UHGV virus genome: UHGV-0139590
DNA length: 33,699 bases
Strand: one strand, 5' to 3'
DNA from: a virus
The position numbers were made by a program, and so were the translations under genes. The notes under the pieces were generated by a model. The model worked only from the letters and a program-made list of their open reading frames with translations, was not told where the DNA came from and did no database searches. Shown here in pieces: positions 7,511 through 25,230 of this stretch (the first letter of the stretch is position 1; every line of letters begins with the position of its first letter).

Positions 7511-7544
7511 ATCCGATCGATGAATCAATCAACAGGAGTTGAAA

Positions 7545-8003
7545 ATGTCGGAAGTTATTTCTTATGCGTCAGCCACTGGCGCGCTCTATAAAGCACAACT
7601 GCTGGATTACTACTACACACGCCGCGCGGATTCAGCCATCGGTCTGGGTAAACGCTTCCAGATGATGAAAGCCTATTGGGGTAAGTCGAATCTGGTTAAG
7701 CAAAATCCGACTGGTGGCTGGACCATTGACGATATCCCTACCAACTTCACAAACGCCAATTTGCTGGGCAAGTTTGCCGAGTGCGATCTGATCTGTACCC
7801 GCCAGGGCGCAACCATCACCGTTAACGTAGTGCTGCCGGAAAGTAAGCTGCCTGCTAACGCCGTGTATGACTTCAATACCCTGACGCTGGTTGATGCTGA
7901 TGGCGTCGCTTTTGCGGTTCTCTGCGCGCAGCAGGACAGCATCTACAAAGGCAAGATTTACAGCATCCTTCTGACCATCGAACAGAAAGGTAGCGGCGCA
8001 TGA
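7545..8003 (+). CDS. Small tail-fibre-operon protein (152 aa), function unknown
   Basis: ATG 7545 with AGGAG 6 nt upstream (an in-frame TTG at 7539 is less likely). Stop overlaps the next start (ATGA). Confidence 0.6.
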   Translation: MSEVISYASATGALYKAQLLDYYYTRRADSAIGLGKRFQMMKAYWGKSNLVKQNPTGGWTIDDIPTNFTNANLLGKFAECDLICTRQGATITVNVVLPESKLPANAVYDFNTLTLVDADGVAFAVLCAQQDSIYKGKIYSILLTIEQKGSGA

Positions 8004-12390: not shown

Positions 12391-12413
12391 TCCCTTTATT
12401 CATATTTTATGTA

Positions 12414-12435
12414 AGCGCCTCCGGGCGCTTTTTTT
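12414..12435 (+). terminator. Rho-independent terminator, identical to 12016-12037
   Basis: AGCGCCTCCGGGCGCT + T7. Confidence 0.65.
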
Positions 12436-12442
12436 ATGCCCT

Positions 12443-12462
12443 CAAAACACAGACTCCATACC
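12443..12462 (+). promoter_or_regulatory. Conserved promoter-like box, copy 3 (CAAAACACAGACTCCATACC)
   Basis: About 38 nt upstream of the GTG start of the holin-like gene. Confidence 0.4.
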
Positions 12463-12499
12463 ATCCAGGCTCGAAGGGAAATTGAGAAAAGGTGGGAAT

Positions 12500-12814
12500 G
12501 TGTTCGAGTTGGAAACAAGTTTGATCCATGTCCTCGCCCTATCCCTTCTCAGTGGCTCCGGCGTGTTCCTGCATGGGGTGCGTGACGGAAGGATTAAGGG
12601 AAATTTCCTGAATTTTATCACTGAGTGGGTCCTGGCAGTGCTGGCTGGGCTGACAGCGTATTACGTCGCCCAGCATAAAGAATGGGAGCAAAGCCTGATG
12701 TATCTGGCGGTGCTGGTGGCGAGTAATAACGGGCGAGAAGTAACAAGTGCGCTTAAGGACCGATTTATTGCTGCAATGCAGTTTATGTTCGGTCCGAAAG
12801 GAGGTGAAAAATGA
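12500..12814 (+). CDS. Holin, lambda S-like class I (104 aa)
   Basis: GTG 12500 with AAGGTG 6 nt upstream. The longer ORF-track version (12299) runs across the terminator and promoter box, so is not used. Three hydrophobic segments and a KDRF...AAMQ C-terminus parallel lambda S. Confidence 0.55.
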   Translation: MFELETSLIHVLALSLLSGSGVFLHGVRDGRIKGNFLNFITEWVLAVLAGLTAYYVAQHKEWEQSLMYLAVLVASNNGREVTSALKDRFIAAMQFMFGPKGGEK

Positions 12815-13266
12815 TGAGTAATTTGCAGGAGTATTGCTTTTACGGAATGGCCGCGCTGGCCGTCTTTGATCGCTTCATCCTGAAACGTAAAAAAATCAGA
12901 CTGGTGGAGTGTGGTGATGCCGTGGTGCGGGGGCAGGCGCTGGCATTCCCGCTGCGGTTTAACGTCTCTTGCTCCCGCCTGACTGGCGCAATGGTCGAGT
13001 ACAGCCTGCGTGACTCCAAAAACCCGACGGCGGTTATCACCGGTAAGACGCGGACGCTGGATTTATCAGTAAAAGGGATGAACGAAGAGTATTTGCTGAT
13101 TGACCAACGCTACCTGGAGGCCGGGACGTGGTTTCTATCGGTCCGTGTCACTCATGGCAACAGCCGCATGAATCCGTTATACCGAATTTTCCCGGTTCAG
13201 GAATCAATTACGCACAATTACAGCGTCACAAAAGATGAGCAGGGGGTTTTCAGTGTCAGCAACTAA
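12811..13266 (+). CDS. Hypothetical protein (151 aa) with N-terminal hydrophobic segment
   Basis: ATG 12811 with strong SD AGGAGGTG; overlaps the holin stop. Confidence 0.55.
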   Translation: MMSNLQEYCFYGMAALAVFDRFILKRKKIRLVECGDAVVRGQALAFPLRFNVSCSRLTGAMVEYSLRDSKNPTAVITGKTRTLDLSVKGMNEEYLLIDQRYLEAGTWFLSVRVTHGNSRMNPLYRIFPVQESITHNYSVTKDEQGVFSVSN

Positions 13267-13879
13267 CGGCTATGTAACCCTTAACTTTGACGAACTCAAT
13301 GTTAAAGGACTGGAAAAGCTTAAAAAAGCAGTCAGTAAGGCCGGTTATGAAGTCGTGAAGGTCACACCAGCAGGCCAGGCACGGCGCAAAGACGGTATTC
13401 CAACAAAAACCTTTGAGCTGAAAGGTATCGACGAGCAGGTAATGGTTGTTCAGGTCAATAACACTGGCGACATTTCCGGCATAAAGCTCAACGGCAAAAA
13501 CTCACCGTACACGCCTGTTAAGACTATGGCCGAGCTGGGAAAAGCACTGGCCGATTTGTTTAAGAAAGGCTCGACGGCGTTCCAAAAGGCCCTGGCGCGA
13601 AAGCTGGCCCGCGCGGCTAAAAAGGACCTCGATAAGGACAAGCCAAACACCAGCAAGGGTGTGAAATCCGGCGTCCAGATGCTCAGTGATGCCCGCGCTC
13701 GCCGTGATGCGCAGAAAGAGGCGATTGAGGCCGTTAATGAAAAACTCACCGCCCTGAAAACAGAGCAGGATATGACGCAGAAGGAGCACGGCAACCTGCA
13801 AAACGAGCTAAATCTGGAAGTGGCGAAAACAACTCAACTCCAGGACCTTATTGCTAAAGCGAAAGGCGGCAACGAATGA
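13235..13879 (+). CDS. Hypothetical coiled-coil protein (214 aa; start may be GTG 13253)
   Basis: Overlaps the upstream gene by 32 nt at ATG 13235. Alternative GTG 13253 has AGGGGG 7 nt upstream. Stop overlaps the next start (ATGA). Size is similar to P1 Hdf as recalled from memory (not verified). Confidence 0.5.
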   Translation: MSRGFSVSATNGYVTLNFDELNVKGLEKLKKAVSKAGYEVVKVTPAGQARRKDGIPTKTFELKGIDEQVMVVQVNNTGDISGIKLNGKNSPYTPVKTMAELGKALADLFKKGSTAFQKALARKLARAAKKDLDKDKPNTSKGVKSGVQMLSDARARRDAQKEAIEAVNEKLTALKTEQDMTQKEHGNLQNELNLEVAKTTQLQDLIAKAKGGNE

Positions 13880-16560
13880 TTGATTTAACGAAAGAGATTG
13901 AGTTAACTGACAAGCCAAACTTTGTGGCTCCGCCTCTTACTGATTCGGTTTACGCGGAGTTAATGACGGGCAGCAGCGCCGATATGATGCTGGAAAGTGT
14001 CACTATTGACGATGTGGATCATGCCTACCTGGGCGATGAAATGCTTTACGTCAGTATCGCCACTGGCAAAGCCATGTTCGAGGCCGTCACCAGTGAGCGC
14101 CTGCGCTTGTCACAGACTATGCGCGCGTTCGCGCGCTCGCTAAACCGTGGCCTGAACGGCACCGGCATCAAAGCGGGAACCGATGACGCCGGTATTGATG
14201 AAGAGGGGCGCAAAACCATTGGCGGCGCGATCATTGGCAAGGTTCGTCGGGTGAACAACATCCCGATCATGACCGCGCTAATTCCGCTCTCTGACGGGCA
14301 GTCTATCTCACTGATTTTCCATTCCCCGACAGCGGATAACGGACGCATCAAAAATAGCGATCTGCTGGTGGCGTTTCGCTTCCTGCTGAATAAGCGCGAC
14401 GTGACGCATATCGTTGCCCCGATTGGTGGTCGTGACGTGTCGTTGCAGCAAGTAAGCCAAGCGCTGGCGAACCTTGCCGAGCGTAACAGCGCGAAATTCA
14501 CCAAACAGCAATCCGCACAGGTGAAGCTGCGCGCTGATATTGAGGGGTTGAACGCGGAAGCGGACCAACTGAGCGAGCAGCAGTCCTCCCTCCTGGAACA
14601 GGTCGAGACACACCAGCAATCCCTGATGAATAGCCAGAGTGACGCGCAACAGCTGCGAGGCAAACTCGCCACACAGCGACAGATTAACGCCGAACTGGAA
14701 GCGCAGCTGGCCGCACTGAAAACGAACGCCGGCAGTGATGTAATTACGCTTCCGGGAGAGACTGGCCGCACCTTCTCTGACACTACGCGTAAGGTGAAAG
14801 AAGGGCTTTCCATGAGCGGCACCACCACGCTCAGCAATGGTGCGGAAGTGGCCTACAAAACAGCTGACGACAACGGCGATCTGGTGGGCTGGGTACAGAT
14901 TACCGATCCTTCCGGGCAGGTTTACAAAATGCCGTCATCGTCACCCCAGGGCGCAAAGATGGGCGAAACGGCAACCAAACTGCTGAAAGCCTACCGCGAG
15001 AACAAAGCGGATAAGTTTGCCGTGGCAGCACCGGTAGAACCGACCCCGGGAAGCGATGACACACAGCAGGGAGCAGGCGCTGATTTGCAGCAGTTGGTGG
15101 CCGTCATCGGTAATGGTCTGACAGACGCGGCAGCGGCTGACTGGGCGGCGAATAAAAAAGCCACGCCTGATTTTATTCGCTTCCTGATCCGCCAGTACGG
15201 CACCGCTGATGATAAAGCCAAACAGCGATTCGTTGAAGGGATCGAGAAGAGCTGGAAAATCAAGTTGCCGGGTACGGGCAGCGACAATCGGCTGGTGGCG
15301 AAACTGGCGCGCGATTACGTTGATAGCATGAAGCGGCCAACCGGCACTGATTTCCTCAACACCTATTTCATGGGCGAAGCGCCGAAAGCCAGCCAGAACC
15401 CGGTTTACGTTCCGCACGTTGAAGGCGGTGATTTCTTTGCAGCACCAATAAATACGGCCATAGATCGCTACCGCGAAGCGCTGCCAAACCCGAAATTGAA
15501 CAGTACCCTGAAAGAGCAGGCTAATTTCCTGATCCGTCTGGTCAAGGCCGAGAAAGATTTCGAAGGCCTGGCAGAGAGCGTGGAAGATGGTTTTGCACGT
15601 CTTGCTGACGGCTCAATATTGACGCTTGAAGACGGCAAGCTGTTATTGTCCACAACCGATGACGAAACGCACAATGCGAAATACTCCGTTGACGTTGGCG
15701 ATCGCGCCCTGGAGGAAGCCATTGAAGATCTGGTGAGTTCGTATCGTCTGGGTAACGTGGAATACATGACGCCGGAAAGCCGCGAGAAAAACAATCCTGA
15801 GCCGCCAAAACCCGTTAGCCAGCCATCACCCGGCAATTACCGCTATGCGCTGGTTAACCGCCCGGCAGGCCCGGCGACTATCCCGGAAGGCAATACGGCC
15901 ATCCTGCCGCCTATATCGCAAAACGAGCCGTATGGCCGCATCGCACGCCACGGTTTCGTAACGTATGACGCGCCGCTGTCAGACGCTGATATGGCCGCGT
16001 TTGAGCTGAAACTTATCCCTACGCATGCTGATCTTGATGCGCTGGCAACGACGATCGCTCAGGGCCGCATGAACAGTTACGCCGCTGAGTATCTGGAAAT
16101 GGCGACGGATGATGCCGATACGTTCCGCTCGCAGGTCAGTATCTTTGCCCGTAAAGACGCGCCTAACGTGGCATTCCCGCAGGGCGATGATCTGGCGTAC
16201 TTCCTCCAGGCGATGAAGGTTGCGCTGGCCGAGGCGGCGAAAACCCCGCCAGCAAAAGATACAGGCCCTGCCGAAGGAGAAGAAATTGTGAAAAAAGAGG
16301 CTTCCGAAGCCGCAGGAAGCGAAGAGCCATCCGAGGCCGATAAGGCAGCGAATGATGCGCTGGCATACCTGCAAAGCATCCTGTCATTGCAGTCAAAAGA
16401 TATGGGCGTTATCCGTGAAGCACGAACCAAAGTCCGTGGCGCGATTGGTACGCTCCAGGCAGCTGGCCGTGACGTGGATAATGAACCTCTGGTAAACGAT
16501 GCTGCGCAGCACCTTTCCGATCTGCTGGTGGCAATTCAGCGTGAAGGAGCAACCGCATGA
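13876..16560 (+). CDS. Large putative virion-internal protein (894 aa), DarA-like by position
   Basis: Long ORF with good codon structure and a central coiled-coil (EQQSSLLEQVETHQQSLMNSQSDAQQLRGKLATQRQINAELEAQLAALK). Function inferred only by analogy to the P1 darA operon, which follows lydA-lydB. Confidence 0.65.
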   Translation: MIDLTKEIELTDKPNFVAPPLTDSVYAELMTGSSADMMLESVTIDDVDHAYLGDEMLYVSIATGKAMFEAVTSERLRLSQTMRAFARSLNRGLNGTGIKAGTDDAGIDEEGRKTIGGAIIGKVRRVNNIPIMTALIPLSDGQSISLIFHSPTADNGRIKNSDLLVAFRFLLNKRDVTHIVAPIGGRDVSLQQVSQALANLAERNSAKFTKQQSAQVKLRADIEGLNAEADQLSEQQSSLLEQVETHQQSLMNSQSDAQQLRGKLATQRQINAELEAQLAALKTNAGSDVITLPGETGRTFSDTTRKVKEGLSMSGTTTLSNGAEVAYKTADDNGDLVGWVQITDPSGQVYKMPSSSPQGAKMGETATKLLKAYRENKADKFAVAAPVEPTPGSDDTQQGAGADLQQLVAVIGNGLTDAAAADWAANKKATPDFIRFLIRQYGTADDKAKQRFVEGIEKSWKIKLPGTGSDNRLVAKLARDYVDSMKRPTGTDFLNTYFMGEAPKASQNPVYVPHVEGGDFFAAPINTAIDRYREALPNPKLNSTLKEQANFLIRLVKAEKDFEGLAESVEDGFARLADGSILTLEDGKLLLSTTDDETHNAKYSVDVGDRALEEAIEDLVSSYRLGNVEYMTPESREKNNPEPPKPVSQPSPGNYRYALVNRPAGPATIPEGNTAILPPISQNEPYGRIARHGFVTYDAPLSDADMAAFELKLIPTHADLDALATTIAQGRMNSYAAEYLEMATDDADTFRSQVSIFARKDAPNVAFPQGDDLAYFLQAMKVALAEAAKTPPAKDTGPAEGEEIVKKEASEAAGSEEPSEADKAANDALAYLQSILSLQSKDMGVIREARTKVRGAIGTLQAAGRDVDNEPLVNDAAQHLSDLLVAIQREGATA

Positions 16561-16895
16561 CGTTAACCGCACTGGAACGGCTGGACCTGAATGACCAGCT
16601 CGATGAGCTGATGATTCAGGCCCAAACGGCCAAGGGGCTGGACCTTCTCGATCTGAATGACCAGATTGAAGAGGTTATGTTAAAGCTGGGGTTCGGCAGC
16701 ACCCGCGCCGCGCCTACGGATACGATCCCGTCCGTTGTCACGGAGTTTTTGGCCGGGAAGTTCGTCAACCAGCCGCAGATGGATTTTGTGGATACTTTGC
16801 GCGAGGTAGGCGCGTATCTGGACCAGTTCTTGTCGCTGGACGATATGCGGCAGCAGGTGCGAACCTGGATCGCCAAAAACAATTACGCCATGTGA
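16557..16895 (+). CDS. Small acidic protein (112 aa)
   Basis: ATG 16557 with GAAGGAG upstream; overlaps the upstream stop. Followed by a strong terminator. Confidence 0.6.
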   Translation: MTLTALERLDLNDQLDELMIQAQTAKGLDLLDLNDQIEEVMLKLGFGSTRAAPTDTIPSVVTEFLAGKFVNQPQMDFVDTLREVGAYLDQFLSLDDMRQQVRTWIAKNNYAM

Positions 16896-16901
16896 AACAA
16901 G

Positions 16902-16924
16902 GCCCCGGAAACGGGGCTTTTTTT
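16902..16924 (+). terminator. Rho-independent terminator (GCCCCG-GAAA-CGGGGC + T7)
   Basis: Seven nt after the stop of the 112-aa gene; perfect stem and T-run. Confidence 0.7.
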
Positions 16925-16925
16925 G

Positions 16926-18135
16926 GTTCGCCGGTCGAAATCACAGCGTTTTATCCGTAATAGATTCAACGTTTATAAGGATGAACGGTTATTGACATCT
17001 TCCCGCCCTAAAGGATGGGGATTCCTACAGCCAGACGGCGATGCCCCGCCGCGAGAATGTTCTTTGCGGCGTTTACGTCGCGGTCGTGAGCGGTTCCGCA
17101 CTCACAACAAGTCCAGTCTCTTATTCGCAAGCCTGCTCTACCTTTCGGACTGTTAGCGGAGATAGCCCCGCAACACGAACAAGCCTGGGTGGAATATTTT
17201 TCGTTAACGACTTCGAACACTACCGACCGCGCAATCGCTTTGTATTTCAGTTGTGTTTTGAGCATGAACCAGCCAGCGTCCAGAACGCTTTTAGCCATTT
17301 TGGTTTTAACCAGTTTCTTACTGCTCACGTCGCCTACGAATATTGCCGCATGGCTGTTTACCAGTGCCGTGCTGTACTTATGCAGTGCATCTTTGCGGCG
17401 GTTCTTAATTTTGGCGTGAATGGCGCGTACGCGGGCTTTTTTGTTCGCCCTCTGCGCCTTGCCTAATGCGGGTTGCAGGTCACGATAAAACCTACCTGCA
17501 ACCAGTGGATCACCCTCTGACGGGGTGGCGTAGTCCTTTAATCCCAGATCTATGCCGATAGCTGTTATTCCCGTTGTCGGGGTGGTTTCGACTTCTACGC
17601 AGACATTGAAATACCAGCGCCCCCGACTATCTTCTGAAAAGCTACCGGCGCGGAATTTATAACCCGCCAGTCCGTAGCTATCCCACACCTTAAAATAGTG
17701 GCCTGCGAACTTGACGCAGCCATTTTGCCATTGCGCCTGCTTCGATTTAAACGGCACCCAGCCCAGAGAACGGCGAGCTCCGCCACTGACACGCCAGCGC
17801 AGACGCGAGCGTTTAAACTGCTTCCGCGCTTTGCCGTGGTCTGCGATCACTTCCTGCACCGTGGCGCTGCCGATGATATAGCCGCGCTCTTTCTGAATAC
17901 CTGCCGTCATCTTCTGAACGTCGAACGCCGACAGCCAGCGGGGAATTTGCGCACCAAAAGCGCCAGCGTTGCTGTATGCCTCGCTGGTTATCTCGTTTGC
18001 CAGATTAAAGACCTGATTGACCTCAAAGGCCATCTGCCGCAAAACGGCGGCGTGGCGGTCTTTAACCCGGACGGATAATGTTTTGATGCGCGTATTCATG
18101 CTCATTACTCCCGCCCGCAGGCGGGAGCCTCCGGG
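16926..18135 (-). mobile_element. IS200/IS605-family insertion element carrying only tnpB (IS1341-like); boundaries approximate
   Basis: Single TnpB ORF, with a perfect 8-bp stem / 4-nt loop hairpin (18108-18127) immediately upstream of its start, as in subterminal left-end hairpins of this family. No tnpA and no terminal inverted repeats, as expected. Confidence 0.6.
17008..18105 (-). CDS. tnpB: TnpB (IS605 OrfB-family RuvC-like, RNA-guided nuclease family), 365 aa
   Basis: RuvC-like motifs GIDLGLKDYATPSEG and HDRDVNAAKNIL; zinc-finger cysteines CSCCG...CCECG near the C-terminus. ATG 18105 with GGGAG upstream. Confidence 0.8.
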   Translation of the reverse strand: MSMNTRIKTLSVRVKDRHAAVLRQMAFEVNQVFNLANEITSEAYSNAGAFGAQIPRWLSAFDVQKMTAGIQKERGYIIGSATVQEVIADHGKARKQFKRSRLRWRVSGGARRSLGWVPFKSKQAQWQNGCVKFAGHYFKVWDSYGLAGYKFRAGSFSEDSRGRWYFNVCVEVETTPTTGITAIGIDLGLKDYATPSEGDPLVAGRFYRDLQPALGKAQRANKKARVRAIHAKIKNRRKDALHKYSTALVNSHAAIFVGDVSSKKLVKTKMAKSVLDAGWFMLKTQLKYKAIARSVVFEVVNEKYSTQACSCCGAISANSPKGRAGLRIRDWTCCECGTAHDRDVNAAKNILAAGHRRLAVGIPIL

Positions 18136-18666
18136 TTAGATCACAAACCAGTCTTCGGCCTGCTCGTCATTCAGCGAAGGGAAAAATTCCACCTCACCTC
18201 CATTAGAATCGAGCAAAAATAAATCATCATTTTCAATGAGAACGTAGCTCGCCGGAACCCAGCTAAGACGCCCTATGAATCGACCAGTACGCGCTGAAAA
18301 ACGCAGTGCTAATTCATACTTCACGTTGCGCCCCCGAAATATTCCAGTAGTTAATCTGAGGGCGATTTGTCGCAGTAAACCGGGCAGAAAAGATACAAGG
18401 TGCGTCGGGTAGTTGAGAACGGGCTTCGGATTCGCTTGCAGCAATAACCGTGTGATAGCGGCGTTTCTGGCAGGAATAGAAGCGCCATATAAATTCAGAG
18501 TGAATCTGGGTAGGGATTGCCAGCATGAGCTGATCTCCGATAACAGTTTAAAACTATCACCACCTGGAGTTTCCACGCTCTGATTGGTGGTGACGCTGAC
18601 GGGGGTGGAAATACCGGCGTTATCGGGAACCGGCCAGCCCGAGAGCTGCCCCGCCAGCGCCACCAT
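18136..18666 (-). CDS. Hypothetical protein (176 aa), weak call
   Basis: Longest ORF in a region with several overlapping ORFs on both strands. No clear SD. Ends exactly at the IS left boundary. No HUH motif, so not TnpA. Confidence 0.3.
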   Translation of the reverse strand: MVALAGQLSGWPVPDNAGISTPVSVTTNQSVETPGGDSFKLLSEISSCWQSLPRFTLNLYGASIPARNAAITRLLLQANPKPVLNYPTHLVSFLPGLLRQIALRLTTGIFRGRNVKYELALRFSARTGRFIGRLSWVPASYVLIENDDLFLLDSNGGEVEFFPSLNDEQAEDWFVI

Positions 18667-18718
18667 AATTTTGTGCGGATCTGTGCCGCTGAATATGGGG
18701 GTACTGACTTACGACAAT

Positions 18719-18741
18719 AAAAAAAGACGCCTGGCGCGTCT
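18719..18741 (-). terminator. Hairpin (AGACGC-CTGGC-GCGTCT) with T7 on the minus strand
   Basis: On the minus strand the stem is followed by TTTTTTT; on the plus strand it is preceded by A7. Confidence 0.4.
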
Positions 18742-18994
18742 GTTGTCGCCGATAACAATTTGCCGGGTTTCCACGCCCGTGCAGACCTTTTTCGTCTGCG
18801 AGAGCAAATGTAACCACCCGGAATGCAGTTTGCAACCACTTTGATTACATATCGGATGACAACAACATTGCCATACTGTCATACAATCGCACTGTAATAC
18901 AATAACAATTAGATTTACTGTTATTTTTCTTCGGTCAGTTGATTGCACATAGTTCATATCATCCCGTTACCGAAAACAGTTAGAGGGCAGGGCA

Positions 18995-20374
18995 TTGAAT
19001 GAATTAACGAATGCCATTGATAACACCGCTGGCGTGGATAGCCTGGTGGCACTGGTAGCATCACTGCATTTCAGCCAGACCGGGTTAGGCCGGACATCTT
19101 TTGTCGTGACCAGCAAAGGAGATGAGGTCAAAACCAGTTTTAAGGTGATCGATGCCCGAAGCCTGGTTATCTCCAACAATCTGGACGGCACCATTAACCC
19201 CAAATTCCCCGCCGAGTTGCAACCGCGCGACCGCACCCGCATGGCGAGCAAAATTCAGGTGAGCAAAATAGCGGGCAACCTGCGACCGGCCCAGCTGAGC
19301 GACTCCGGGCTTAGTAGTCACGGCGCGCCGATTGTCGGCCTGGATAACGTTGTCGAATCCGGTAACGGGCGCTCAATGGGTATTTTGCGCGCCTACGAAC
19401 AGGGGCAGGCGGACAGCTACCGGCTGTACCTGATTGAGCATGCTGTCGACTACGGGCTGAAAGCGTCGGACATTGAGAAGATGGATATGCCGGTGCTAGT
19501 GCGCGAGCGCATAACTGACGTTGACCGCGCGAAGTTTGCCCGCGATTCTAACCAGTCAGATTTACAGGAAATGGCCGCGAGTGAAAAAGCGTTTGTAGAC
19601 GCTGAAATGCTCGACGAGCGGCTCATGGCGATGTTTGCGCCATCAGATGAAGGCAATCTGTTAGCCCGCACCAACGACGCGTTTATTCGGGCATTCATGA
19701 AGGAAATTGGCGACACGGCCTCAGCTGGCCTTGTAACCACTGACGGGCGACCAACCAAGCAGCTGATTGACCGAATCCAGAATGCTATTTTTGCCAAAGC
19801 TTACAAAGATGAGCGTTTAGTAAAGCTGGTGGCAGAGGAGCCGGACCCGGATATGCGTAATATCCTGACCGCACTCAATACCGCAGCGAGCGATTTTGCC
19901 AAGATGCAGATGCTATCCGGCGACGTTCACAAGCAGGCGGTTGACGGGCTGGTGAGCGGCGTGGAGGAGGTGAGCGGGCTGGATAAACAGGCCATCGCCG
20001 CGCTACAGGATGCAATAAACCTCGTCCGCCAGGCGAAGGACAGCGGTCAGGCAATCGAAGAGGCGATCGCCCAGCAGGGATTGTTTGAGGAGACGAGCAA
20101 AGAGGCCGAGGCGCTGGCGCTCTTTATCGTGGCGAACAACCGTAGCGCAAAACGTATCGGCGCAGCATTCAAGAAGCTGGCGCAGAAAATTAACGCAGAG
20201 CTAACCCACCAGCAGCAGGCGTTGGGGGATATGTTTGGCGGGGGTGATTTATTGCTGGTGGACGTGCTTAGTGCGGTTTCACGCGAGATTGAAGAGGAGT
20301 TCGGCGAAGGGAAAGGGCTGAATTTTGCGATGTTTGAATCCGCAGCGGGTGCGGGGGATGTAGCCGTAAACTAA
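18995..20374 (+). CDS. ParB/Srx-like N-terminal domain protein (459 aa), TTG start
   Basis: TTG 18995 is the first start-like codon after an in-frame TAG at 18950, with GAGGG 7 nt upstream. Motif PIVGLDNVVESGNGRSMGILRAYEQG parallels the ParB box (for example P1 ParB ...ILDGSRRRASAIL). No adjacent parA. Confidence 0.6.
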   Translation: MNELTNAIDNTAGVDSLVALVASLHFSQTGLGRTSFVVTSKGDEVKTSFKVIDARSLVISNNLDGTINPKFPAELQPRDRTRMASKIQVSKIAGNLRPAQLSDSGLSSHGAPIVGLDNVVESGNGRSMGILRAYEQGQADSYRLYLIEHAVDYGLKASDIEKMDMPVLVRERITDVDRAKFARDSNQSDLQEMAASEKAFVDAEMLDERLMAMFAPSDEGNLLARTNDAFIRAFMKEIGDTASAGLVTTDGRPTKQLIDRIQNAIFAKAYKDERLVKLVAEEPDPDMRNILTALNTAASDFAKMQMLSGDVHKQAVDGLVSGVEEVSGLDKQAIAALQDAINLVRQAKDSGQAIEEAIAQQGLFEETSKEAEALALFIVANNRSAKRIGAAFKKLAQKINAELTHQQQALGDMFGGGDLLLVDVLSAVSREIEEEFGEGKGLNFAMFESAAGAGDVAVN

Positions 20375-20380
20375 TTGAAA

Positions 20381-20402
20381 GCCCGCTTAATGCGGGCTTT
20401 TT
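20381..20402 (+). terminator. Rho-independent terminator (GCCCGC-TTAAT-GCGGGC + T5)
   Basis: Seven nt after the stop of the ParB-like gene. Confidence 0.65.
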
Positions 20403-20412
20403 CTGGTCTGTG

Positions 20413-20432
20413 CTAAAACACAAACTGATTAC
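20413..20432 (+). promoter_or_regulatory. Conserved promoter-like box, copy 4 (CTAAAACACAAACTGATTAC)
   Basis: Follows a terminator and precedes the hydrolase gene by about 33 nt, the same arrangement as copies 2 and 3. Confidence 0.35.
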
Positions 20433-20464
20433 GGTGAATTCTTCTTTCAACTGAGGAATTCACT

Positions 20465-20956
20465 ATGAGTCAAACCGCAGAACAGCGCTGGGTAACAGAA
20501 GCGCGTAAAAATCTCCACGTCCGCGAAATCAAAGGTCCGCAGCATTGCCCGGAAATTCTGCAATACTGGCGCGACATCAAACGTGGCGGCATCAAAGACG
20601 ATGAAACACCCTGGTGCGCCGCTTTCGTCGGTGCCATGCTGGAGCGCGTCGGTATCCAGTCAACCCGCTTTGAATCGGCCCGTAGCTACCTGAACTGGGG
20701 AACCGAGCTTCGCGAGCCAGTGCCAGGATGTATCGTTGTATTCACCCGCGATGGCGGCGGTCATGTCGGCTTTGTTGTCGGCCAGAACGAGAATCGCGAT
20801 CTGCTGGTGCTGGGCGGCAATCAGTCCGATGCCGTCAATGTCCGCGCCTTCCCACGCGCCCGCGTTACCGGCTATCGCTGGCCTGCCGGTGAAGCACTCC
20901 CGGGTGATGTTCGCCTGCCTGTTACCACTGCGCAGAAGTCCACCAGCGAAGCGTGA
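20465..20956 (+). CDS. CHAP / NlpC-P60-like peptidoglycan hydrolase (163 aa), candidate endolysin
   Basis: ATG 20465 with GAGGAA upstream. Putative catalytic Cys in DDETPWCAAFVGA and His in DGGGHVGFVVG, typical of CHAP-type amidase/peptidases. Confidence 0.7.
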   Translation: MSQTAEQRWVTEARKNLHVREIKGPQHCPEILQYWRDIKRGGIKDDETPWCAAFVGAMLERVGIQSTRFESARSYLNWGTELREPVPGCIVVFTRDGGGHVGFVVGQNENRDLLVLGGNQSDAVNVRAFPRARVTGYRWPAGEALPGDVRLPVTTAQKSTSEA

Positions 20957-20987
20957 TCCACATGCCCTGGCGTCTGCCGGGGCCTTA

Positions 20988-21911
20988 CTACTGATATCCA
21001 CGAAAACCTTTCGGGATCTTGCCGTAATCAACACCTGCGAAGGATTCCCGGAAAACGGTGTCATTCTTGCCATTCCCGGTAGTTTTAAACGCGCTCAGCA
21101 CTTTGAGCATCATGCTCTTGAGCTGGTTAATCTCATTGCCCTGGCGCTGGTTGTAGCGTTCCTCTGCGGCATTGAGCTGGCCCTGAATACGCGTTGCCGT
21201 GATAAGCGCATTCCACTCGGCAAGTGTTTTCCCCTGATAAGCCTGATCCGGTTTATCCACAACCTGCGACGGCTCAGGCGCACTATTTGGATTTTTTTCT
21301 CTTTCAGAAGAAGCAGTAACTATCTCCTTTTGTGCCTCATCTTGCGCCCCGGCTCCCCGCTTCGTTTTGCGCCCCCCTTCTTTAATGACAATCAGAGCTG
21401 ACGCGGCTTTCAGAGCAAACACCATTACTTTTTGTTTCAGGCGGCTGACGGTCTTGCGATAGAGGAAAATGGCGAGGCAAAACAGCATGGCTGGACGGGT
21501 GAGGGTGCGGCGGGCGGTTTCCGTTCCAATTGTGCCTTGGGGAATTTCGGAATTAAAAATCGCGCGTCCGGCATTGCTGGTGGTGAAGCGATCGAGGGTA
21601 GCAATGGACACTTCCGCTTCCTGGGCGATGGTCTTGCGGCTGGCGTAGCAAACGCCGGTATGTGACGGGTTAACTTTGTTGGCAATGCACCCGGCAATAA
21701 TTTTTCCGGTACGGCTGACGAGTGATGCAGGAAGGTAGGCGAGGGCGTTGCTTAATTTGTAGCCTGTAGGGAAAGCGCGTTGCAGTTCGAGCCATAGCGC
21801 GGCGTTGTCCATTTCAAGATAAGCGGAAAACTCAGGCAGGCCGGGGAATAGTGTGGGTTTTATTGCACTATCTGGTAAAGAATTAGGCTGGATTTGGTCA
21901 CAGTTTTGCAT
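20988..21911 (-). CDS. HTH-domain protein (307 aa), possible regulator or replication-associated protein
   Basis: ATG 21911 with AGGAAAT upstream. N-terminal region ...TGVCYASRKTIAQEAEVSIATLDRF... resembles winged-helix HTH modules. Convergent with the hydrolase gene. Confidence 0.5.
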   Translation of the reverse strand: MQNCDQIQPNSLPDSAIKPTLFPGLPEFSAYLEMDNAALWLELQRAFPTGYKLSNALAYLPASLVSRTGKIIAGCIANKVNPSHTGVCYASRKTIAQEAEVSIATLDRFTTSNAGRAIFNSEIPQGTIGTETARRTLTRPAMLFCLAIFLYRKTVSRLKQKVMVFALKAASALIVIKEGGRKTKRGAGAQDEAQKEIVTASSEREKNPNSAPEPSQVVDKPDQAYQGKTLAEWNALITATRIQGQLNAAEERYNQRQGNEINQLKSMMLKVLSAFKTTGNGKNDTVFRESFAGVDYGKIPKGFRGYQ

Positions 21912-22210
21912 TATTATTTCCTAAGTTGTTTGGGGCCTTTATGGATGAGCTGCCCCGCCTGCGCCCGCCAAGGCGCTGGTTGTTGGTTGAGAGTGGTATC
22001 TCGAAGTTCTTTGCCAGGTCGCCAAACCAATGGGCATCGAACAAAATCTTTAGAAAGCTGGTGGATCGCCATCCTCCGGCTTTTTTCTTTTTTATCCTGT
22101 CATAGCGTCATTCCTTGTTGTTTTTCAGGCACGACAAAACCGCACCGATAATTCGGCGCTGAGTGATTTTTACTCAGGGGACTGACACACGAAAACGCGC
22201 ATGAAAAAAC

Positions 22211-22239
22211 TTGAGTGCGGGGAATAGTGCTTGTAAACT
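22211..22239 (+). promoter_or_regulatory. Candidate sigma70 promoter (TTGAGT-17-TAAACT)
   Basis: Good -35 and 17-nt spacer, acceptable -10. No protein-coding ORF with an SD downstream before the terminator at 22333. Confidence 0.3.
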
Positions 22240-22246
22240 GACCTTA

Positions 22247-22356
22247 CAGCACTTTTCCAGTCTATTGCGTGTTGTCAGCATTGAGTGAGTGCGAATCACG
22301 TCAGCGCATAAGGGCTTAAAGGCCCGGCAAAAGCCACCTGCCAGGGTGGTTTTTTG
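22247..22356 (+). ncRNA. Candidate small RNA (~110 nt) between promoter-like hexamers and an intrinsic terminator
   Basis: Promoter-like element at 22211-22239 and terminator at 22333-22356 (CCACC-TGCCA-GGTGG + T6). Intervening sequence has no ATG-initiated ORF. Confidence 0.2.
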
Positions 22357-22408
22357 CTTTCTGGCGTTTAACATACGCCAAAAATTGTTACCCAGGAAGA
22401 TCCAGGCC

Positions 22409-22449
22409 AAAAAAAGGATCACGATCCAAGCTGGTGGCAATCGCGATCC
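22409..22449 (-). terminator. Minus-strand hairpin (GGATCACGA ... TCGCGATCC) followed by T7, downstream of the protease/scaffold gene
   Basis: Imperfect 9-bp stem with a long loop; the A7 on the plus strand becomes a T-run on the minus strand. Lies 60 nt after the gene end at 22509. Confidence 0.35.
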
Positions 22450-22508
22450 TAACCACGTCATGACCCTATAGCAATACTGTTTTTATGAACAGCACCTTAG
22501 AATCACTA

Positions 22509-23534
22509 TCACTTTCGATGTGGCCTGAGCCACAGCGCGGGCGTGTCATCGTCGGCGTGGCGTACTTTCGTGCCTACTGGCGCGGGCTTATGAGCCGATC
22601 TCCCGCCGTCCAGCGGCAGCGTTGCGCCTGCCGAGCCGACAGCAGATTCCAGCATGGCCGCAAGCACCATTGCGTCGTCTTCGGTTTCCATTCGGATCAG
22701 CGCCTGCTTCTGCTCCTTACTCAGGAACACCGGCAGCTCCGACACGGCATTGCGCAGGATTTTTCGACGTTTCGCCGCAGAATCCCCCTGGCTTTCCAGC
22801 ATCATGTTAACGTCGCGCAGGCGCTGCTCCACTTCCATTAAGCGCCCCTGGCTGGCCCATAGCTGGCTTTCCAGCTGGCCGGTACGCTCCACGGACTCCA
22901 GCATTGCCTGGTTGGTTCGCATTTTTTCGAAGTGGTGGCACAGGTCCGTCGCGGCGTTATCGCTGTAACCGGCGTTGCGCAGCGCGTTGTGCATTTGCTC
23001 GCCCCGGGTGTCGGCAGACTCCAGCATCATGCTGCTTTTATCCAGGCTGACATAGTTCGGAATGGTCACGTAGTCCATGCCGTGATAATTGTTCACCAGC
23101 GAGCGGATCGCCCCGTCTTTGCCACCCGTAACCCATGACCAGCCGCCCGCGTTAGAGGCGATCATGCCTTTCACAATCTGGCCCGGGTCGGTATCCAGTA
23201 TTTCCTGGGTGTGAGTGACAATGCCGTTATCGTCCACGTCGATTGCGACGGTGCGGTTAGACGGTACATTGGTCAGCGTTACCGGCTTGCCGTCCACCAG
23301 CACCACACTGACCTCCGGCAGGGTGAGCTTGCCGTCCTTCTCATACTGCAAGGCGCGGCGTCCGTGGCCGTAGTAGCCAAACATTTCACCCAGTTTTATA
23401 TGCTCGCGCACTTCTGGATCGTTGAACGTGGCGCGCACGGTCTGAATGATGTAGTTGCGGTCATTCTGCGGCGTGTGGCGTCGAATTTTGTCGATAAGGG
23501 AAAAGCGATCGGTAACGGTTTGAAGTGTTTTCAT
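22509..23534 (-). CDS. Putative head maturation protease / scaffold (341 aa)
   Basis: ATG 23534 with AAGAGAG upstream. Immediately downstream of the portal gene on the same strand. C-terminal half is coiled-coil-like, as in scaffolds. Protease assignment is by position only. Confidence 0.5.
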   Translation of the reverse strand: MKTLQTVTDRFSLIDKIRRHTPQNDRNYIIQTVRATFNDPEVREHIKLGEMFGYYGHGRRALQYEKDGKLTLPEVSVVLVDGKPVTLTNVPSNRTVAIDVDDNGIVTHTQEILDTDPGQIVKGMIASNAGGWSWVTGGKDGAIRSLVNNYHGMDYVTIPNYVSLDKSSMMLESADTRGEQMHNALRNAGYSDNAATDLCHHFEKMRTNQAMLESVERTGQLESQLWASQGRLMEVEQRLRDVNMMLESQGDSAAKRRKILRNAVSELPVFLSKEQKQALIRMETEDDAMVLAAMLESAVGSAGATLPLDGGRSAHKPAPVGTKVRHADDDTPALWLRPHRK

Positions 23535-23544
23535 GATGACTCTC

Positions 23545-25230
23545 TTAATTTTGGCTCATGACAAATTTGGCGAAGTTGAGTAGCTGGGTACGGCTCCAGT
23601 GCTCAGGGTTTTCATGACGATCTGGCGCGGATTCATGCATCATGTCCTCGTCGTCAAATTCGTGCTCAGCGGATACGGCTTTAAACTCGGTCAGCATCTT
23701 TTCCAGCATCTGCGGGTCCATCTTGAGCTGGTCACAGAACAGGTAGCGCATGAAGGTATCGCTGCCCGCCAGCTTCGGACTCTGCTGTATCTGGTCGAGG
23801 ATCTGGGTGATGATGGAAATGAAGTTGGCGCGGGCGTCCTGATCGCGGGCCTCTTCTGCCATCAGTGCGGTATTCATGGAGTTGAATTGCACGGTGAAAG
23901 GGCGCTGGTTCGGCAGGTAAATCTTGCCGTGCTTATACGCCAGGTGGATATCCACAAAGCGATAGATAGCGTCTGCCACGGCTTGTCGCAGCCACTGCGC
24001 GCGCTGCGCCGCATGAATGGCAGTTTGCGCCCAGCCGCCTTCCCCCAGACCGCCAGACATTTGATCTGCCCACCCCAACATCGTTGAATCAATGCCCAGG
24101 CTTGAGCACAGCTGGCGCAGGTGAAACATCACATCTTCAATGCCGGTGATATCTGCCGGGATGTACTGCGTATCCACGGTGACGCCGTTCTTGCCGTCGC
24201 CCATCAGCGGGATCAGGTGGTTCAGTACGGTCGGCATGGTGCTGGCCTGGACGGACCGGCGCGCCAGCGTCTCTGCGTTGCGTTTCAGTGATTGCGCTAC
24301 GCTGCGCGTGTAGTTGGCGGCGTTAACCGGGTCCAGTGTGCCGGTGGTCAGTGCGATCAGGCGGTCGATTTTGGCGGCGTTATAGCGCGTGGCTTTCAGG
24401 GCATTCAGCGCCCCGCACAGGTTCATAAATGGCTCGTAGGAGTGCTCCAGGAAGCTGGTGCCGTAATTCTGCGTCTCCATCAGATTCTGATCCTGAACGT
24501 CATTCATCAGGGTGTAGCCGCGCGTGCCGGTGGTCATCGGGATCAGGTTACGGCTCGGGGTCCAGTACGGGTTTTTGACCGGCACGATAAACCACGGCTC
24601 CGCCAGGGTCCGTTGCAGGTTGTCCGGGGTCAGCAGGTAATCGCCGGTATAGCCCGCCAGCTGCCCGCCCCGGTGGAATTCCTGGATGAAGTGGGGAAGG
24701 GTGTAATAGCTGGACTCGATGTTAACGATCCCCCGCCCGGGCTCGCCGTATGGCCGGGTAAAGCCCACGCCGAAAATCGACATAAGCAACCCCCATCCGG
24801 GCATCCCGTTATTAATCATTTCCCCCAGGTCTTCCATCAGCTCATTGCAGCGGGTGACGGCCTCTTTGTCTGCCGGGTTCTTTGCCACCAGCGAGAACGC
24901 CAGCCCGCTTCTTTTGCTGGGTGACAGGGCGTGTGCAATGTGGATATTGAGCGCGCTGGATACCGTGGCGCTTTTAGACATTTCCTCCAGGATCGGATAT
25001 TTGGCGAGGCGGTCCAGGGGCAGCGTCAGCCCAATGCCGAGGCTGTCCGCTTCCGTCGTCAGTTCACCCGGCGCATCGCCAGGCTTACCGACCAGCGTAG
25101 CCAGCCCGGACCGTGACACGACGTTATGCCCACTACTCAAAGGCAGATGGGAAACGGGCGTTTTGGGCGCGCTGGTGAACAGCTTTTTCAGGGCCGTGAT
25201 CGCCCCGTTAGTCGAGTTTCTGTTTGCCAT
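23545..25230 (-). CDS. Portal protein (about 561 aa)
   Basis: Large ORF directly upstream of the protease/scaffold gene and divergent from the DarB-like gene, matching P1-like prt-pro gene order. ATG 25230 is preferred over the ORF-track GTG 25263. Identification by size and context, not by a verified motif. Confidence 0.6.
   Translation of the reverse strand: MANRNSTNGAITALKKLFTSAPKTPVSHLPLSSGHNVVSRSGLATLVGKPGDAPGELTTEADSLGIGLTLPLDRLAKYPILEEMSKSATVSSALNIHIAHALSPSKRSGLAFSLVAKNPADKEAVTRCNELMEDLGEMINNGMPGWGLLMSIFGVGFTRPYGEPGRGIVNIESSYYTLPHFIQEFHRGGQLAGYTGDYLLTPDNLQRTLAEPWFIVPVKNPYWTPSRNLIPMTTGTRGYTLMNDVQDQNLMETQNYGTSFLEHSYEPFMNLCGALNALKATRYNAAKIDRLIALTTGTLDPVNAANYTRSVAQSLKRNAETLARRSVQASTMPTVLNHLIPLMGDGKNGVTVDTQYIPADITGIEDVMFHLRQLCSSLGIDSTMLGWADQMSGGLGEGGWAQTAIHAAQRAQWLRQAVADAIYRFVDIHLAYKHGKIYLPNQRPFTVQFNSMNTALMAEEARDQDARANFISIITQILDQIQQSPKLAGSDTFMRYLFCDQLKMDPQMLEKMLTEFKAVSAEHEFDDEDMMHESAPDRHENPEHWSRTQLLNFAKFVMSQN

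Follow-up and report, generated by a model that had tools for sequence, protein, structure and literature searches.

A solo TnpB whose guide matches a neighbouring gene of sibling phage-plasmids: a candidate for RNA-guided homing in a P1-like phage-plasmid

TnpB proteins are the ancestors of Cas12, and to our knowledge their sole established natural role is to keep their own transposon in place by cutting the site that it has vacated. We describe a tnpB gene in a stretch of 33,699 nucleotides (nt) of the virus genome UHGV-0139590 (hereafter, the window). The window is a piece of a P1-like phage-plasmid and is identical to an 87-kb ENA metagenome scaffold. Its nuclease appears to have outlived its transposon, with a guide that would aim at a conserved neighbouring gene, ddrB, of sibling phage-plasmids. 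The anatomy is secure: a solo tnpB/omega-RNA module that keeps only the right end (RE) of an insertion sequence (IS) and lies in a cassette of the C4/icd type. The function is more tentative. Comparison of related genomes leads us to favor, at somewhat under even confidence, a role in RNA-guided “intronless homing” or in the exclusion of sibling phages, rather than in a working transposon. The most informative feature of the locus is the match of its guide, which a first-pass annotation of the window had missed.

The guide segment comprises the 18 nt that follow the RE on the minus strand (Table 1). It matches ddrB at 18 of 18 positions in four contigs from separate records (L062, L063, L064, and L005). 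There it is preceded on the same strand by TTTAC, a match to the TTAC/TCAC motif that the IS family uses as its target (the transposon-associated motif, TAM). In the loci of these four contigs, the ddrB target is the sole such guide match, and it lies about 0.85 kb from the cassette insertion point. By our estimate for a 90-kb genome, the chance of a motif-flanked, correctly oriented 18-mer match in a neighboring gene is about 1e-8. The target surfaced among the fetched close relatives; the guide has no second site in the window and no matches in the viral or genome contigs of public collections. One metagenome match, in an unrelated gene, was set aside as chance. Between the guide segment and the intergenic DNA of ddrA and ddrB lies a short filler, for which no source was found; a match in P1 with three mismatches is at chance level. 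Filler and guide recur in a second cassette lineage (L077-L079), each with a single substitution, which marks the flank as old. For 40 RE-like sites in the fetched loci, with flanks of 3 kb, no other guide could be matched convincingly, and a general rule for phage-borne solo TnpBs finds no support there.

A near-isogenic pair of genomes adds a second line of evidence. L062 is an 82-kb cassette-free contig with a perfect ddrB target, and its divergence from the window is concentrated in one patch (Table 1). The ddrB target is near the center of this patch, with 1,523 nt of homologous DNA to the left edge and 1,409 nt to the right; the cassette is off-center. Within the patch, positions 19,098-20,970 are identical to the cassette-free relative L070, and the DNA hugging the cassette exactly matches no fetched relative. 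Such a picture would be expected if a break at the target in an L062-type genome had been repaired with a cassette carrier as donor.

The sister E. coli plasmid ET210 carries the same left-side junction as the window and 90-99% of the tnpB sequence, but a different flank at the RE. The first 24 nt of that flank (GAAGCCGTGGCGCGCGATGCGGCC) copy a site in darA (site A; Table 1), and the next 49 nt are a copy of another darA site. Ahead of site A stands GTTAC in the window and in L062, each with two mismatches to the ET210 guide, and GTCAC in L070, with one. In ET210 itself, darA differs from that of L070 at the motif by one nucleotide, a GTG to TTG (Val to Leu) change that turns TCAC into TCAA; the codon is TTG for Leu (L001 5138-5140), against GTA, GTT, or GTG for Val in four relatives (window 15958-15960). 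The ET210 site combines a change in the TAM with one seed mismatch to the plasmid's own guide. We had also considered a microhomology excision footprint that left CAA in ET210 darA; the simpler one-nucleotide difference from L070 supersedes it. Taken together, the two sister phages have guide-length patches that differ from one another; either patch copies a motif-flanked site in a gene no more than about 1 kb from the cassette, and in each carrier its own site is spoiled. The patch lengths of 18 and 24 nt are near the distance from the TAM at which TnpB is said to cut, 15-25 nt (reportedly in work by Karvelis in 2021).

The flank of ET210 is a patchwork in its own right. It spans L001 6095-6164 and consists of 49 nt corresponding to window 16421-16469 and 24 nt corresponding to 15934-15957; the darA pieces are joined at the microhomologies CACGAA and GGCCG, and the ddrA terminator is deleted or replaced. 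It looks like the product of template-switch repair.

These features suggest a mechanism. TnpB may act as a programmable homing endonuclease, because its guide matches the neighboring gene of siblings without the cassette. Bound to an omega-RNA that has the 18 nt behind the RE as its guide, it would recognize TTAC followed by TAACCGTTCATCCTTATA. This combination is present in ddrB of cassette-free sibling phage-plasmids, which would make the sibling a target; the carrier's ddrB would escape through its four synonymous mismatches. Where both genomes occupy one cell, the sibling would be cut. The cut sibling would either be lost or be repaired from the carrier, gaining both the cassette and the resistant ddrB allele. 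Transposition would no longer be involved. A broader proposal is that the P1-like lineage has kept TnpB as a free-standing RNA-guided nuclease for homing or exclusion with an exchangeable guide patch, and that the upstream C4 module may gate expression of the nuclease in the way that P1 controls its antirepressor; on the sequences compared here, we regard this as possible, though on balance unlikely. Such a locus would be a natural intermediate between the fixed guide of a transposon and a re-targetable guide locus.

The protein is a TnpB, with an OrfB_IS605 RuvC-like domain and a C-terminal zinc-ribbon (TNB) domain. It matches Pfam Cas12f1-like_TNB (1.1e-20) and OrfB_IS605 (8.7e-13), at 74 and 49 bits, both above cut-off; NCBIfam guided_TnpB at 226 bits (cut-off 100); and the PDB structures of ISDra2 TnpB at E 7e-22. 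The first-pass annotation had read a minus-strand open reading frame (ORF) of 365 amino acids (aa) as a TnpB with RuvC-like motifs and a zinc finger, and these matches bear it out. The longer frame exists (17008-18105, minus strand), but homologues begin at its second ATG, 18099 (MNTRIKT), which gives a protein of 363 aa, as in the homologues.

The catalytic site has an unusual arrangement. Throughout the family, RuvC-I D184 (GIDLG), RuvC-III D341 (HDRD), and the zinc finger (CxxC...CxxC) do not vary. D184 and D341 align with the catalytic Asp residues of ISDra2, which we take to be D191 and D361. The canonical position of the RuvC-II Glu is an invariant Gly256 (FVGDVS); the next residue, D257, is Asp in some members of the family and Asn in others. 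At 44 residues downstream of Gly256 comes an alternative Glu, E300 (VNExYSTQ), which is likewise invariant. Altae-Tran et al. (2023) described TnpB clades with a “rearranged RuvC-II” (RIIr), in the largest group of which Gly takes the place of Glu and another Glu is predicted to make up the site (PMC10691335). The window protein resembles these clades both in the Gly that replaces the canonical Glu and in the invariant Glu about 44 residues downstream; its placement in RIIr-5 specifically is a guess. Since Gly256 and E300 fit this published type, nuclease activity of the window TnpB is plausible.

The gene also appears to be maintained. It is intact, with the D/E/D residues and the zinc-finger Cys kept, in the three fully read cassette copies (window, L079, and ET210) and in L076, where the 5′ part, at a contig end, is IS-like. 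Among cassette copies, the ratio of nonsynonymous to synonymous substitution rates (dN/dS) is 0.10-0.13, and nucleotide divergence among lineages is 4-10%. The ATG is fused precisely to new upstream DNA, with a GGGAG Shine-Dalgarno sequence 8 nt before ATG 18099, so that the start of the gene looks maintained as well. Relative to ET210, the window tnpB is a mosaic: identity is 73-84% in 17488-17887 and 95-99% in 17088-17487, with 17488-17687 just 73% identical, which suggests that part of the divergence came from gene conversion with other IS copies. Up to 18085, L076, a contig of a different sample, agrees with the window at 99.95% identity; it then continues with a 5′ end like that of the canonical IS (MSIQTKT), and this contig-end sequence (7530-7649) may have been joined on from a chromosomal IS copy during assembly.

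Comparative evidence strongly supports an omega-RNA scaffold at the 3′ end of tnpB. We aligned the last 170 nt up to the end of the RE from 28 diverse copies, including 22 viral contigs, and folded the alignment with RNAalifold. Compensatory changes occur in 14 of the 25 predicted pairs, and 96.7% of cells are paired, compared with 42-51% in slid-partner controls; none of 500 shuffles reaches the observed values. In helix 3, six of seven pairs show compensatory changes despite the position of the helix inside the coding region. Directly after GTCAA, the flanks of the compared copies diverge, as at a boundary between scaffold and guide. The fold of the single sequence is no better than that of shuffles (z = -0.46), and the evidence for structure is therefore comparative only. 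Rfam holds no omega-RNA family that matches the window. That annotation had the strand and the 3′ end right and the position wrong: in place of 16926-17060, the predicted scaffold and its guide occupy the intervals given in Table 1.

The origin of the module can be traced to an IS608-like element of the IS200/IS605 family that inserts 3′ of TTAC or TCAC. Elements of 1.64 kb with a divergent Y1 tnpA hold the most similar proteins (90% identity) as well as several copies on Klebsiella plasmids. Four full-length copies with tnpA (L003, L004, L008, and L009), in unrelated contexts, have TCAC, TCAC, TTAC, and TTAC as their left flanks. The full-length element starts CA(A/T/G)GG..TTTCGCGG, and its right end, ...GGAATCCCCnnCC-TTTA-GGnnGGGGAGGATGTCAA, is found in every copy, the window included. 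A TTAC target with a right end in TCAA is, we take it, the pattern of IS608. All copies have in common the terminus ...GATGTCAA, which falls at window position 16992 (TTGACAT on the plus strand). Homology to all other copies stops there, and 16926-16991 is therefore flank rather than IS.

Only the right end of that element survives in the window; tnpA and the left end have been lost. No tblastn match to tnpA was found in the window, in agreement with the first-pass view of a locus with tnpB alone. Upstream of tnpB, IS homology stops at the start codon, and no recognizable left end was found. The first-pass annotation had taken a perfect hairpin at this place as an IS end and had set the element's bounds at 16926-18135. 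The hairpin is a real fold: as single-stranded DNA (ssDNA) it reaches -12.8 kcal/mol (z = -3.8), none of 200 shuffles folds as well, and its stem is similar to that of the RE (CCCGCC/GGCGGG). As a left end we reject it, for it has no homology to the left ends of full-length or solo copies of the family. In solo copies the left end has the form GTAAAAC-hairpin-GATATAAGG, 100-170 nt upstream of the ATG; the window hairpin has no TTAC/TCAC at a suitable distance. The junction of hairpin and ATG occurs in this cassette lineage only (ET210 and two short ENA contigs) and was not found in viral and genome collections. With the right end at 16992 and the hairpin not a left end, the proposed bounds do not delimit a TnpB-only IS.

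Solo copies are common elsewhere. Among 46 viral contigs that encode TnpB relatives (L010-L055), three have a tnpA within 3 kb and 43 do not. In a type found in E. coli prophages (L010-L016; about 100 E. coli genomes), a solo copy sits beside int/xis, and there too IS homology ends at the start codon.

In the window, tnpB is the last gene of a cassette of about 2.0 kb between ddrA and ddrB. The stretch 18136-18990 had been described as weakly coding; it is a module of an IsrK-like small RNA (sRNA), a C4 antisense RNA, and an Icd-like ORF. Promoter elements at -35 and -10 were picked out by eye at 18807-18835, upstream of the IsrK-like sRNA. A 176-aa ORF said to stop precisely at the IS boundary is a composite: its 5′ third overlies the C4 RNA gene, its middle is overlapped by the Icd-like ORF in another frame, and what resembles a gene is confined to the last 62 codons (GTG 18324 to 18136). 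This gene, orf62, is called in other contigs; it has a weak DUF2829/Tad2-like match (E 0.021), and its protein ends ...EDWFVI. Elsewhere in the Leclercia plasmid lies an 83-aa gene 37% identical to orf62, and Tad2-like ORFs are called in L065-L067. The Pfam match of the 176-aa ORF to Phage_ASH (window 18575-18667) falls on the C4 RNA gene, as does an “ash family protein” pseudogene called by PGAP in ET210 (L001 7747-7839). Calls of “ash family” at such loci may be translations of an RNA gene.

The cassette is an acquisition. Cassette-free relatives run directly from the ddrA terminator to ddrB, without window ~16954-18980. They include Leclercia pE1_003, L062-L064, L070, and L081, as well as more distant Citrobacter, Pantoea, and P1 genomes. 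The cassette is present in ET210 and in contigs from several other samples. Its absence from related phage-plasmids marks it as an acquired insertion. Comparison with relatives that lack the insertion had been proposed in the first-pass annotation, and it supports acquisition; the unit that is present or absent, however, is the 2.0-kb cassette and not the 1.1-kb tnpB segment. The order of C4 RNA and icd-like ORF on one strand is that of the immI region (c4, icd, ant) of P1 and P7. Unlike immI, the cassette has no ant, and orf62 and tnpB come after icd instead; an IsrK-like RNA precedes C4, and the module lies in the dar region, away from immI. The place of tnpB is that of ant in P1, and tnpB may therefore be controlled by C4.

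Table 1. Coordinates of features in the window and of its comparison with the cassette-free contig L062
Feature	Position	Strand	Details
Guide segment TAACCGTTCATCCTTATA	16974-16991	minus	exact 18-nt copy of ddrB site in cassette-free siblings
Filler AACGTTGAATCTATTAC	16957-16973	minus	17 nt between guide segment and ddrA-ddrB intergenic DNA
Window's own ddrB target	19802-19824	minus	TTTAC intact, then TAAACGCTCATCTTTGTA; 4 synonymous mismatches, 2 in first 12 nt
darA site A	15934-15962	minus	GTTAC + 24 nt; 2 mismatches to ET210 guide
Window vs L062, left of patch	12,400-16,259		2 positions differ
Window vs L062, patch	16,260-21,219		~8% divergence plus cassette; 4.96-kb patch, sole differing stretch bar 3 positions
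Window vs L062, right of patch	21,220-25,200		1 position differs
tnpB coding sequence	17008-18099	minus	363 aa; D184, Gly256, E300, D341; zinc finger C307/C310/C331/C334
Omega-RNA scaffold (predicted)	~16992-17161	minus	overlaps tnpB 3′ end and RE; helix 3 17035-17052; RE hairpin 17000-17021
Perfect hairpin	18108-18127		upstream of tnpB; 8-9 bp stem; 3′ arm holds tnpB Shine-Dalgarno sequence
Whole accessory cassette	~16954-18980	minus	~2.0 kb; right boundary fuzzy, 18947-18980
IsrK-like sRNA and intrinsic terminator	18720-18799	minus	46.3 bits, just under gathering score 50
C4 antisense RNA gene	18583-18670	minus	Rfam 80.7 bits
Icd-like ORF	18314-18526	minus	70 aa; NF033153 48.6 bits
orf62	18136-18324	minus	62 aa; GTG start; overlaps icd end by 11 nt
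DarA	13876-16560		
ddrA	16557-16895		
ddrA terminator	16899-16920 plus T-run		
DdrB-ParB protein (ddrB)	18995-20374		
DarB-like ORF			2280 aa

Several observations weigh against homing or exclusion. The scheme does not account for the origin of the 18-nt and 24-nt patches beside the RE; possible routes are a TnpA reaction that joined the RE to a TTAC site, recombination with IS copies that had inserted in those genes, and templated patch repair. The conversion patch is an argument from one genome pair, and the dar region is mosaic in general. No perfect TAM-flanked target for the ET210 guide was found among the readable sequences; the best, in L070, has TCAC and one mismatch. In the window, the RE hairpin is degenerate, with two mismatches, an ssDNA energy of -2.3 kcal/mol, and no predicted fold, against -9 to -13 kcal/mol in full IS copies and ET210, and part of this decay is common to the second cassette lineage, L077-L079. 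In that lineage, the substitution rate of the guide is no lower than background, and the guide therefore shows no sign of selection. Since the window comes from a metagenome scaffold, chimeric assembly is possible too; this concern is countered by the right-hand cassette junction, which recurs at 99.8-100% identity in three other samples.

Much of this could be understood if the locus were an inert relic: an IS of this family inserted at TTAC in ddrB (in darA in the ET210 lineage), and deletions and recombination then stripped it of tnpA, the left end, and most of the flank, leaving the guide matches as fossils and TnpB idle. We hold this to be a serious possibility, short of probable. The missing tnpA and left end, the decayed RE hairpin, and a guide that drifts at the background rate in the second lineage all fit it; a normal IS605-type insertion would by itself put TTAC-adjacent sequence beside the RE, and tnpB is as a rule solo where viral contigs carry it (43 of the 46 loci are without tnpA). 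A relic explains less well that no lineage has a broken tnpB and that dN/dS is near 0.1 at 4-10% nucleotide divergence, although gene conversion weakens this point. Just guide-length pieces of the target genes (18 and 24 nt) stand beside the RE, with unrelated filler beyond them, and one left-side junction goes with two different flanks. ET210 bears a point mutation that destroys the TAM in its own target, and the patch relative to L062 is centered on the target. Two other explanations fare far worse. One is an IS200/IS605 element with TnpB alone that is still mobile, has the hairpin at 18108-18127 and ~16926 as its bounds, is moved by TnpA in trans, and was inserted as a unit; this is very improbable. 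Its hairpin is real, with a stem similar to that of the RE, the RE is genuine, and host genomes carry full copies with tnpA. The hairpin region, however, is not homologous to the family's left ends and has no TTAC/TCAC flank, is 8 nt away from the start codon, and includes the Shine-Dalgarno sequence; its junction with the ATG is confined to this cassette lineage, and what is present or absent is a 2-kb cassette with a right end at 16992, not 16926. We give equally little credence to a TldR-like domesticated binder or regulator, or a toxin-like module under C4 control, that acts on its own dar genes or on the host. The place as last gene of an operon of the C4/icd type, which in P1 belongs to the antirepressor, and guides that point at dar-operon genes would suit such a role. 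Catalytic D184, E300, and D341 are nevertheless kept in all cassette copies, unlike in TldRs, mismatches or loss of the TAM mark the alleles of the carrier itself, and the targets are inside coding regions rather than at promoters.

The genes around the cassette are those of the dar region of a P1-like phage. The order in the window is holin and LydB, DarA, ddrA, the DdrB-ParB protein, a CHAP/TIGR02594 lysin, head-processing and portal genes, and a DarB-like ORF. The terminator of the last operon gene before the element, recognized in the first-pass annotation, is that of ddrA, and its coordinates shift from 16902-16924 to those in Table 1. A further suggestion, that the insertion had displaced or truncated a ddrB-like gene, does not hold: ddrB is intact from its start at 18995, and its 459-aa protein is identical to that of the cassette-free L070. 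We also rejected a 1.95-kb deletion that would have truncated the 3′ end of the window ddrB, relative to Leclercia pE1_003 and P1, and balanced the 2.0-kb insertion, because short DdrB forms of 458-474 aa are common and the same 459-aa protein occurs without the cassette. DdrB of the window clade, at about 460 aa, is the ParB-like N-terminal half only, with the lysin gene directly after it; the forms of P1 and pE1_003 have 960-995 aa plus hxr. At the junction behind the short DdrB (window 18995-20374 compared with P1 ddrB) there is a GATATC..TCGTA microhomology. DarA is longest in L062 (1021 aa), against 900 aa in L070, L077, and ET210 and 894 aa in the window, and its indel (window 16260; L062 3885-4335) falls at the same place as the left edge of the divergent patch.

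The nuclease belongs to the protein family of the TnpB-omegaRNA nucleases of IS200/IS605 elements (ISDra2, IS608, and that of G. stearothermophilus). As in those elements, the RNA would come from the 3′ end of tnpB plus the RE, the guide would be the DNA beside the RE, and the TAM would be the transposon's target motif (TTAC/TCAC, with an RE ending in TCAA as in IS608). Unlike them, the window locus has neither tnpA nor a left end. A transposon homing model has been put forward for TnpB (PMC10055086, PMC13565253). In contrast to IS200/IS605 homing, the window guide would target a site about 0.85 kb away in a neighboring gene rather than the empty insertion site, and self would be told from non-self by substitutions (TAM loss in ET210) rather than by the presence or absence of the element. 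TldRs, the nuclease-dead TnpB repressors of prophages, offer another comparison: they too are immobilized phage tnpB genes whose guide points at a specific gene. The window TnpB differs in that it retains its catalytic residues and in that its target is in sibling genomes and not at a promoter.

The closest parallel in behavior is with the free-standing homing endonucleases of T-even phages (SegF, SegG, and Mob), whose action is called intronless homing or localized marker exclusion. A 2026 review divides homing into intron, intronless (by protein endonucleases), transposon restorative, and transposon non-restorative modes; RNA-guided intronless homing is not among them (PMC13565253). If our reading is true, the window would hold the first natural case of it, and a concrete example of a fixed transposon guide re-aimed at other DNA, a step that must have occurred en route to the target-switching systems of the CRISPR type; if it is not, the locus is an ordinary immobilized IS remnant. 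Like SegF, SegG, and Mob, the window nuclease is encoded in a spacer between conserved genes, and its target would lie in a nearby conserved gene of nuclease-free relatives (for the concept, see PMC13565253). Like them, the carriers would be protected by substitutions, seen in the window and ET210 at the level of sequence, and a co-conversion tract would surround the cut; the patch in the single genome pair of window and L062 may be such a tract, and for ET210 no comparable pair was found. Unlike them, the window system would recognize its target through a guide RNA and a TAM rather than through protein, and its host is a temperate P1-like phage-plasmid.

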